DNA of 60,156 bases, filler included, from Hausera hauseri (Eukaryota): the NCBI GenBank assembly GCA_046269625.1. It is 11 parts of 11 records of this genome, joined end to end, with 100 filler letters (N's around TTAATTAATTAA, not from the genome) between each part and the next. Parts side by side here need not be neighbours in the genome. Positions count along the whole stretch, not along the records: positions 1 to 8,527 come from JBJURY010616553.1; 10 more parts are not named here. The stretch is one strand, 5' to 3'. Both the position numbers and the translations under genes were made by a program. Shown one piece after another: positions 8,118 through 8,527 of the stretch; the stretch's first letter is position 1, and every line of letters begins with the position of its first letter. The notes under the pieces were generated by a model, which saw only the letters and a list, made by a program, of their open reading frames with translations, was not told the DNA's origin and ran no database searches.

Positions 8118-8527
8118 TCAATGTACATTATTTTGATTCAGTAAAACATTTATGTGATTTTTAATTTGATTAATAACCGGTTCATAATCCACTGTTCGAA
8201 TACCGAGTACAACAATTTTTCCACTGCTAAACACATTGACACAGAATGGCCGAAACGATGTCAGTTTCAGTGAAGGAAACAGTTCGGGTTCATACGTACA
8301 TTCAGTAGCAGCGGCCATTACTAATTTGTACAGATTGATTGTTTGGTGGTGGTGGTGGTCTAACTGAGTCGTTACCGTTATTAATTGGATTTGGTCAATG
8401 ACAATCACGAATGGCAGTAGTTTGCCGTCGTCAGCTGTGATTGGTTTGCAACAACCCATAATACGACACTTTCCCGATTGAAATACGATGCATGTAAAAT
8501 CCGGTGGACACCGGAGGACATACTGCC
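8118..8527 (-). CDS. Divergent TATA-binding-protein-like protein (5' truncated by contig end)
   Basis: Frame is open to the linker. Repeat 1 is TCIVFQSGKCRIMG. Repeat 2 is INLYKL...YEPELFPSL...CVNVFSSGKIVVLG, the TBP core signature. Intronless and far too diverged to be host TBP. Confidence 0.85.

Follow-up and report, generated by a model that had tools for sequence, protein, structure and literature searches.

A Polinton-borne TATA-binding protein family and an associated candidate late promoter box, traced from a truncated gene copy in Hausera hauseri

A short TATA-binding protein (TBP) reading frame at the end of a contig from Hausera hauseri raises the question of whether a mobile element carries its own TBP and, if so, what such a protein would do for it. 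The window, that is, the whole stretch of 60,156 nucleotides that was analysed, comprises 11 separate contigs (4-8.5 kb) joined by 10 identical 100-nt spacers; the contigs are unrelated, so gene neighbourhood across a spacer is meaningless. The Polinton-borne short TBP gene lies on the minus strand at 8118..8527, where a frame without stops extends from the codon at 8525 to that at 8121 and ends with the stop at 8118-8120 (135 codons plus stop). It runs into the non-biological assembly spacer at 8528..8627 (44 N, TTAATTAATTAA, 44 N), and sequence to the right of 8627 has no relation to it. The contig end cuts off the 5' end of the gene, which takes away the start codon and some 25 N-terminal residues; the nearest proteins, P0001 and P0002 (160 and 149 aa; 74% and 72% identity), start about 25 residues earlier. 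What had been taken for a complete ORF is the 3' part of one. The alignment also reveals a 4-histidine in-frame insertion that is absent from relatives. No second TBP copy occurs within the window, in which two sister polymerase contigs stop short of that position.

The frame encodes a real TBP homologue, as the initial annotation had proposed. It matches Pfam TBP (PF00352) with an E-value of 1.9e-12 and 47.3 bits, above the cut-off of 22.9, and it also matches 35 distinct PDB sequences (best E 1.7e-9), all but one of which are labelled TBP or TBP fusion. A model of the fragment (pLDDT 82) has TBP as its best PDB matches (TM 0.6), and the top 39 Foldseek PDB matches listed for it are all TBP-containing chains. 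Comparison of the fold with TBP, suggested at the outset as a check, was run with a full-length, 148-aa short-form relative from locus L002, whose model (pLDDT 96.9) superimposes on TBP with Z 14.5 and an rmsd of 2.4 A over all 148 residues; the two-repeat saddle is present, with long helices in repeat 2 only. The statement that both half-repeats are visible is correct insofar as both quoted motifs lie in this one frame, but repeat 1 is represented by its second half only, and parts of it are lacking family-wide.

Contig 1 (1-8527; 8.5 kb), with the TBP gene at its end, carries the remains of a Polinton. A broken gene for a protein-primed DNA polymerase B occupies 1668..4822 on the plus strand (tblastn, 39-44% identity to the polymerases of the related loci L002 and L020), and sister polymerase copies within the window match Pfam DNA_pol_B_2. 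The minus strand holds a dUTPase gene remnant (6873..7163; Pfam dUTPase, E 2.7e-17), broken copies of the conserved element genes F2 (6128..6694; tblastn E 1e-16) and F4 (7356..7733; tblastn E 3e-12), a second, more distant F4-like ORF (5254..5643; tblastn E 4e-4, and alignment), and a weakly matching remnant of the small element gene F11 (664..828; tblastn E 7e-5). In 66 related loci, F2 adjoins the TBP gene in 29 and F4 lies near it in 17. F2, putatively exonuclease-like by motif, has no Pfam match and no clear PDB match; F4 scores below 0.9 in Atlas, gives a poor model and matches nothing clearly in PDB or PHROG. In F2, a 10-N gap is flanked by a 79-nt duplication (6410-6576), probably a scaffolding artefact. 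Integrase, packaging ATPase and cysteine protease genes are found in related loci but not on contig 1, which breaks off within the TBP gene. Two further decayed copies of the same element family lie elsewhere in the window (23338-28336 and 28437-33746); they retain remnants of polymerase and F11, and where they match contig 1 their DNA is 66-87% identical to it. A Polinton-type polymerase at 16379-19144, also broken, is more distant and has an endonuclease VII domain (Pfam E 1e-6).

The initial annotation had treated it as significant that the TBP frame is open while its neighbours are disrupted. Over its 3.15 kb the contig 1 polymerase is broken 13 times, by 10 in-frame stops and 3 frame changes. 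At that rate an open 405-nt stretch has a P of about 0.19, which does not exceed chance, and even the polymerase contains 369 consecutive codons without a stop. Given that break rate, the equation of an open frame with a selected one was rejected, and the implied selective upkeep of the window copy is not supported, selection being seen in the family only. Against the majority in all four public runs, the window ORF differs at 15 positions, which by eye comprise 10 non-synonymous (one ambiguous) and 5 synonymous changes, for a dN/dS of about 0.5-0.6. These differences fit neutrality (P 0.19-0.24) and also a ratio of 0.3 (P 0.17-0.23); the family value of 0.18 fits poorly (P 0.02-0.04). In a quick tree the window TBP has an end branch of 0.20, versus 0.06 for its two nearest relatives, and it differs from the family at one near-invariant DNA-face position. 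The window copy is thus probably a drifting, truncated relic, and the value of the locus lies in the TBP family to which it leads.

The 66 related loci derive from 272 pattern matches in a metagenome scan with a 13-sequence TBP alignment, and their 502 ORFs were clustered. They contain a Polinton/adintovirus module of packaging ATPase (Pox_A32), chromodomain integrase (rve) and adenain protease (Peptidase_C5), together with a PLA2-like gene and a polymerase with endonuclease VII. Going by size and order, we take F9 to be a putative penton and F10 (about 410 aa) a putative hexon, and on the same grounds F5 and F14 are presumably structural genes; none of the four has a capsid Pfam match. A virion or replication gene family is present in 31 of the 66 loci and in 19 of the 25 that reach at least 3 kb, and such genes or F2/F4 are found in 53 of 66, counts that overstate independence since many loci are close kin. 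As a held-out check, the alignment of the putative hexon was used as sole query and returned two loci: L067, which carries a TBP gene, and L068, which stops short of that region. The TBP, putative capsid and ATPase alignments had no matches in IMG/VR. Four public runs covered 30 of 30 bins of 5000-8527, with 19278, 894, 297 and 161 variant contigs, and cover by many variant contigs is expected for a repeated element. It is virtually certain that the TBP gene belongs to the element; linkage to element genes, the tree described below and L067 all bear out the proposal that it is element-encoded.

Several features of these loci deserve mention in their own right. L067 (1-12666) carries polymerase, structural module, TBP and F2, and both it and L068 (1-4976) are Polinton-type contigs filed inside bacterial MAG records, where they are probably mis-binned. 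Elements with a long TBP (L049-L060, L065) often have two tandem F2 genes directly after the TBP gene and a PLA2-like gene before it. In 5 loci a gene of family F19 is close to the TBP gene; its product has leucine-rich repeats and a signal-like start (L026, 1918-3327).

A profile search of 50%-identity representatives yielded 60 proteins at E 1e-30 or better; the best 150 matches are mostly non-canonical TBPs, with 9 classed as canonical by sequence. A quick tree was built from the 135 of 180 rows left after near-duplicate removal. In it, P0001, P0002 and the window protein group together within a clade of 72 rows (SH-aLRT 97) that includes 19 of the 23 element loci kept, and the 9 canonical-type TBPs, only 20-33% identical to the window protein, form a separate side of the tree (SH-aLRT 98). 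The phylogenetic check thus places the protein in the element clade, apart from canonical-type TBPs. These results bear directly on the idea that the gene is a recent retrocopy of a host TBP/TRF that came to lie beside the element by chance. The ORF is intronless and now apparently drifting, as a retrocopy might be, but its divergence from the canonical-type TBPs, its nesting in the element clade, the linkage to element genes in many loci and the many variant contigs in 4 of 4 runs make such an origin hardly credible; it was rejected on linkage across loci, the tree and L067. Across the family, dN/dS has a median of 0.18 (range 0.05-0.48; 38 pairs of at least 70% identity, the pairs being non-independent), so that this further check indicates constraint in the family. 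Near-length relatives of 109-198 aa are single-saddle proteins. The family has a short form, to which the window copy belongs, and a long form of 165-185 aa.

To place residue changes, 170 family rows were mapped on the canonical TBP P0086, and an offset of 41 gave yeast numbering in agreement with the TBP residues of PMC12529657, Table 1. The family keeps three of the canonical four intercalating phenylalanines: F116 in 166 of 170 rows and F190 and F207 in 169 each. At F99, a position outside the visible window ORF, 160 of 170 rows have Pro, so a check on the intercalating Phe residues is answered by retention of three and loss of the fourth. N69 is kept in 153 rows, and the acidic TFIIB stirrup is kept as well (E186 in 152 and E188 in 168 of 170; both are present in the window copy). 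The symmetric DNA face of canonical TBP (N69/N159, V122/V213, T124/T215, L114/L205) is not preserved, with N159, V122, T124 and L205 replaced in 166-170 of 170 rows: V122 by Arg (166), T124 by Met (170), N159 by Ser or Thr (168) and L205 by Asn (169). V161 is likewise Thr or Ser in 168 of 170 rows, and V71 is Asn in 128. The gap between G125 and Q158 spans 22 residues in the window copy and mostly 19-20 in the family, versus 32 in canonical TBP, and helix H2 of repeat 1 is absent in the short form, including the window copy, and present in the long form. The repeat-1 helices of cellular TBP, H2 among them, form the surface for TFIIA, TAF1, Mot1 and Brf1. Of the TFIIB and TFIIA surfaces singled out for inspection at the outset, the acidic TFIIB stirrup is therefore retained, but the repeat-1 helices are missing in the short form. 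The long form keeps these helices; the DNA-face changes, together with the promoter box considered next, are common to long and short forms.

Upstream regions of the element genes contain two kinds of promoter motif, both picked after sequence inspection. The candidate late promoter box was found by reading these regions and was then counted against dinucleotide shuffles with near-duplicates removed. Of 58 virion or packaging genes, 49 have ATAAAC in the upstream 100 nt (shuffle mean 5.6, maximum 16) and none has it there on the opposite strand; it stands before 14 of 14 ATPase, 22 of 25 F2 and 6 of 8 integrase genes. In the virion/packaging set ATAAAA, ATAAAT and ATAAAG show no enrichment. 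TBP genes present a different picture, with ATAAAC before 4 of 41 (shuffle 2.6) and TATAWAW before 20 of 41 (shuffle 8.6, maximum 16). The final 30 nt before the gene contain an initiator-like TCAYW in 36 of 48 TBP genes (shuffle 8.3) versus 17 of 90 other genes (13.9), a count from which only exact duplicates were removed. L067 follows the same division, having the box before its ATPase, F5, F9, F14, F10 and protease genes and not before TBP; its F2 and integrase genes have no box within 100 nt. It is important to emphasize that the box counts come from TBP-bearing loci, and Polintons that have no TBP gene may share the box.

The 73 distinct sites give the consensus YATAAAC[A/G], with T as first base in 60 and A in 2. 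The distance from box to ATG is 31-48 nt in 42 of the 73 and less than 31 nt in 7, a spacing that suits a TATA box with a short leader. With respect to the upstream gene, 15 of the 73 sites overlap its stop codon, 26 lie inside its coding region, 12 lie within 40 nt after its stop and 12 lie more than 100 nt past the nearest annotated upstream stop; where the box overlaps coding sequence or a stop, protein constraint adds to its conservation. At three F14 3' ends (L002, 6941-7249; L020, 7684-7980; L022, 5578-5931), the putative major-capsid box lies inside the upstream gene and reads Ile-Asn-Lys. In the window, the candidate late promoter box TATAAACA (6720..6727, minus strand) has its ATAAAC core starting 32 nt upstream of the F2 start position, and a box TATAAACG (5729..5736, minus strand) lies about 90 nt upstream of the second F4-like ORF. 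The sister copies also carry TATAAACG, once at 34 nt ahead of the F11 start position (33316) and once at 23841 (minus strand).

The split between promoter types, together with the kept TFIIB stirrup, makes a late transcription factor, one of two roles offered in the initial annotation, the best supported reading. Judged from sequence, the TBP of intact relatives is probably the element's late-gene activator, working via host Pol II in the manner of herpesvirus ORF24. Host TFIID would transcribe the TBP gene early from its ordinary TATA plus initiator promoter; the element TBP would bind YATAAAC[A/G] some 35 nt upstream of packaging and capsid genes via its rebuilt DNA face and, once there, would use the retained acidic stirrup to attract host TFIIB and Pol II. 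The short form, being without first-repeat helices, would escape control by TFIIA, TAF1, Mot1 and Brf1. In this scheme the fold, the family, its linkage to elements, family-level selection, the residue changes and the two promoter types are observed, and we infer the binding, partners and timing of the element TBP. The C at box position 7, which is the non-canonical base, presumably faces the first repeat, where F99 is lost and an invariant Arg stands. A Pro beside F190 acts at the first box position, according to the available part of PMC12529657, and this is consistent with that orientation. Counting against the scheme is the loss of one intercalating Phe, since ORF24 depends on all four (PMC12529657, same part). 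A simple zinc-ribbon pattern, a weak test on short contigs, detected no TFIIB-like ORF among the 502 ORFs of the 66 loci.

The box could also be a real promoter that host TBP/TFIID reads, with the element TBP doing another job, for instance as a general booster on replicating templates or in giving relief from host TBP regulators. Entry 1qn3 is, by its title, a crystal of wild-type TBP with a "C(-25)" variant of the TATA box, and host TBP may therefore read the box unaided; moreover, the link between gene and box is one of co-occurrence. Host reading would, however, leave unaccounted for both the near-invariant, non-conservative DNA-face changes shared by long and short forms and the rarity of the box before the TBP gene itself (4 of 41), and it seems unlikely. 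Signals of another kind might equally produce a conserved motif of this type: the box may be read by the transcription machinery of a helper virus, or be a polyadenylation or termination signal of the upstream gene. Its resemblance to AATAAA, its overlap with the upstream stop at 15 of 73 sites and its position within 40 nt after one at 12 would suit these proposals, and an association of Polinton-like viruses with entomopoxviruses is reported in the part of the literature available. The first base, T in 60 of 73 and A in 2, points the other way, as do the tight spacing to the downstream ATG with its sharp lower edge near 31 nt, the 26 sites inside upstream coding regions and the 12 lying more than 100 nt past the nearest annotated stop; a helper-read box or a polyadenylation signal is improbable on these grounds.

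The second role offered at the outset, that of a dominant-negative mimic, corresponds to a decoy that would lower host transcription by sequestering TFIIB or by sitting on host TATA boxes. Such a protein could well have a near-invariant TFIIB stirrup and have lost F99, plus both first-repeat helices in the short form. A decoy nevertheless leaves unexplained why a remodelled DNA face is fixed and why a matching non-standard box precedes the element's structural genes, and it is very improbable, less likely than the late activator on just these points.

Virus-encoded TBPs that serve late transcription are already known, and an element-borne TBP with a matching candidate late box is a variant of that theme. 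The closest parallel is with KSHV ORF24 and the other beta- and gammaherpesvirus vTBPs, which, as described in the available part of PMC12529657, are also TBP-fold proteins of viruses that use host Pol II, are more polar on the side that meets DNA (in ORF24, through changes at V122, T124, V161 and L205) and serve late genes with a non-standard TATA-like box. From the same portion of that paper, ORF24 is a multidomain protein of 752 aa in a six-member complex, whereas the element family is a bare saddle of 145-185 aa; ORF24 reads TATTWAA, whereas the element TBP goes with TATAAAC; and ORF24 keeps four Phe and is without the TFIIB acidic residues, whereas the element TBP has lost F99 and kept the stirrup. 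The Pol II-binding N-terminal domain, ORF34-binding region, extra C-terminal domain and TATTWAA that define the ORF24 family are not found with the element TBP, which may work in the manner of ORF24 but does not belong to its family. With cellular and archaeal TBP (PF00352) the element family shares the two-repeat saddle (Z 14.5), three of four Phe, N69 and the YEPELF stirrup; it differs from cellular TBP in its 20-33% identity, its rebuilt DNA face and, in the short form, the lack of repeat-1 helices. Giant viruses pair TBP with their own RNA polymerase, whereas no such polymerase gene was seen in the related loci. Giant-virus, asfarvirus and nimavirus TBPs in BFVD are also virus-encoded TBP folds, the named matches being 13-20% identical, and an unnamed BFVD entry, A0A5P9U4S6, at 37% identity, may be a family member.

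The related loci share with adintoviruses, Mavericks and Polintons the polymerase, integrase, packaging ATPase, adenain protease and PLA2-like genes, as given in the available text of PMC8502044. In that text (Starrett et al. 2021) and the preprint, as far as these were available, "TBP" occurs only as a map label in figure legends, for a figure of other MELD viruses and related elements; unlike the present account, the text contains no TBP family, residue analysis, promoter motif or mechanism. The available supplement text has no TBP or TATA, and the maps may show more. By term search, the accessible portions of PMC11161782, PMC8097293, 10.64898/2026.10.13.758929 and 10.1101/2024.03.25.586562 make no mention of TBP. 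No description of the TBP family or of the TATAAAC box appears in the literature searched, most subscription papers and Repbase lying outside the search.

It is about an even proposition that a widespread animal Polinton clade has a true early-to-late programme, with a one-protein switch of ~145 aa that is adapted to TATAAAC and has shed the TFIIA/TAF/Mot1 surface, and an orthogonal TBP-box pair independent of ORF24. If so, these "transposons" would possess a private promoter class for host Pol II and an autonomous lytic programme. The matter bears on the control of capsid genes in Polintons/Mavericks and on their need for a helper virus, and a self-encoded TBP with a matching box reduces the question to one small protein and one 8-bp site. 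The late-activator reading, if right, would also provide a natural minimal altered-specificity TBP in which TFIIB recruitment is separated from TFIIA/TAF/Mot1 control, and a second viral route to late transcription beside the six-protein herpesvirus complex.

The remaining contigs of the window hold sequence of other kinds. A broken PIF1-helicase sequence at 19646-22481 is probably a Helitron, and decayed reverse transcriptase and integrase of LTR-retrotransposon type are spread over three contigs (39321-43664 and 51371-56152). Dynein heavy chain sequence at 44429-49861 and 11485-13601 represents host genes and includes one open frame of 1810 codons.
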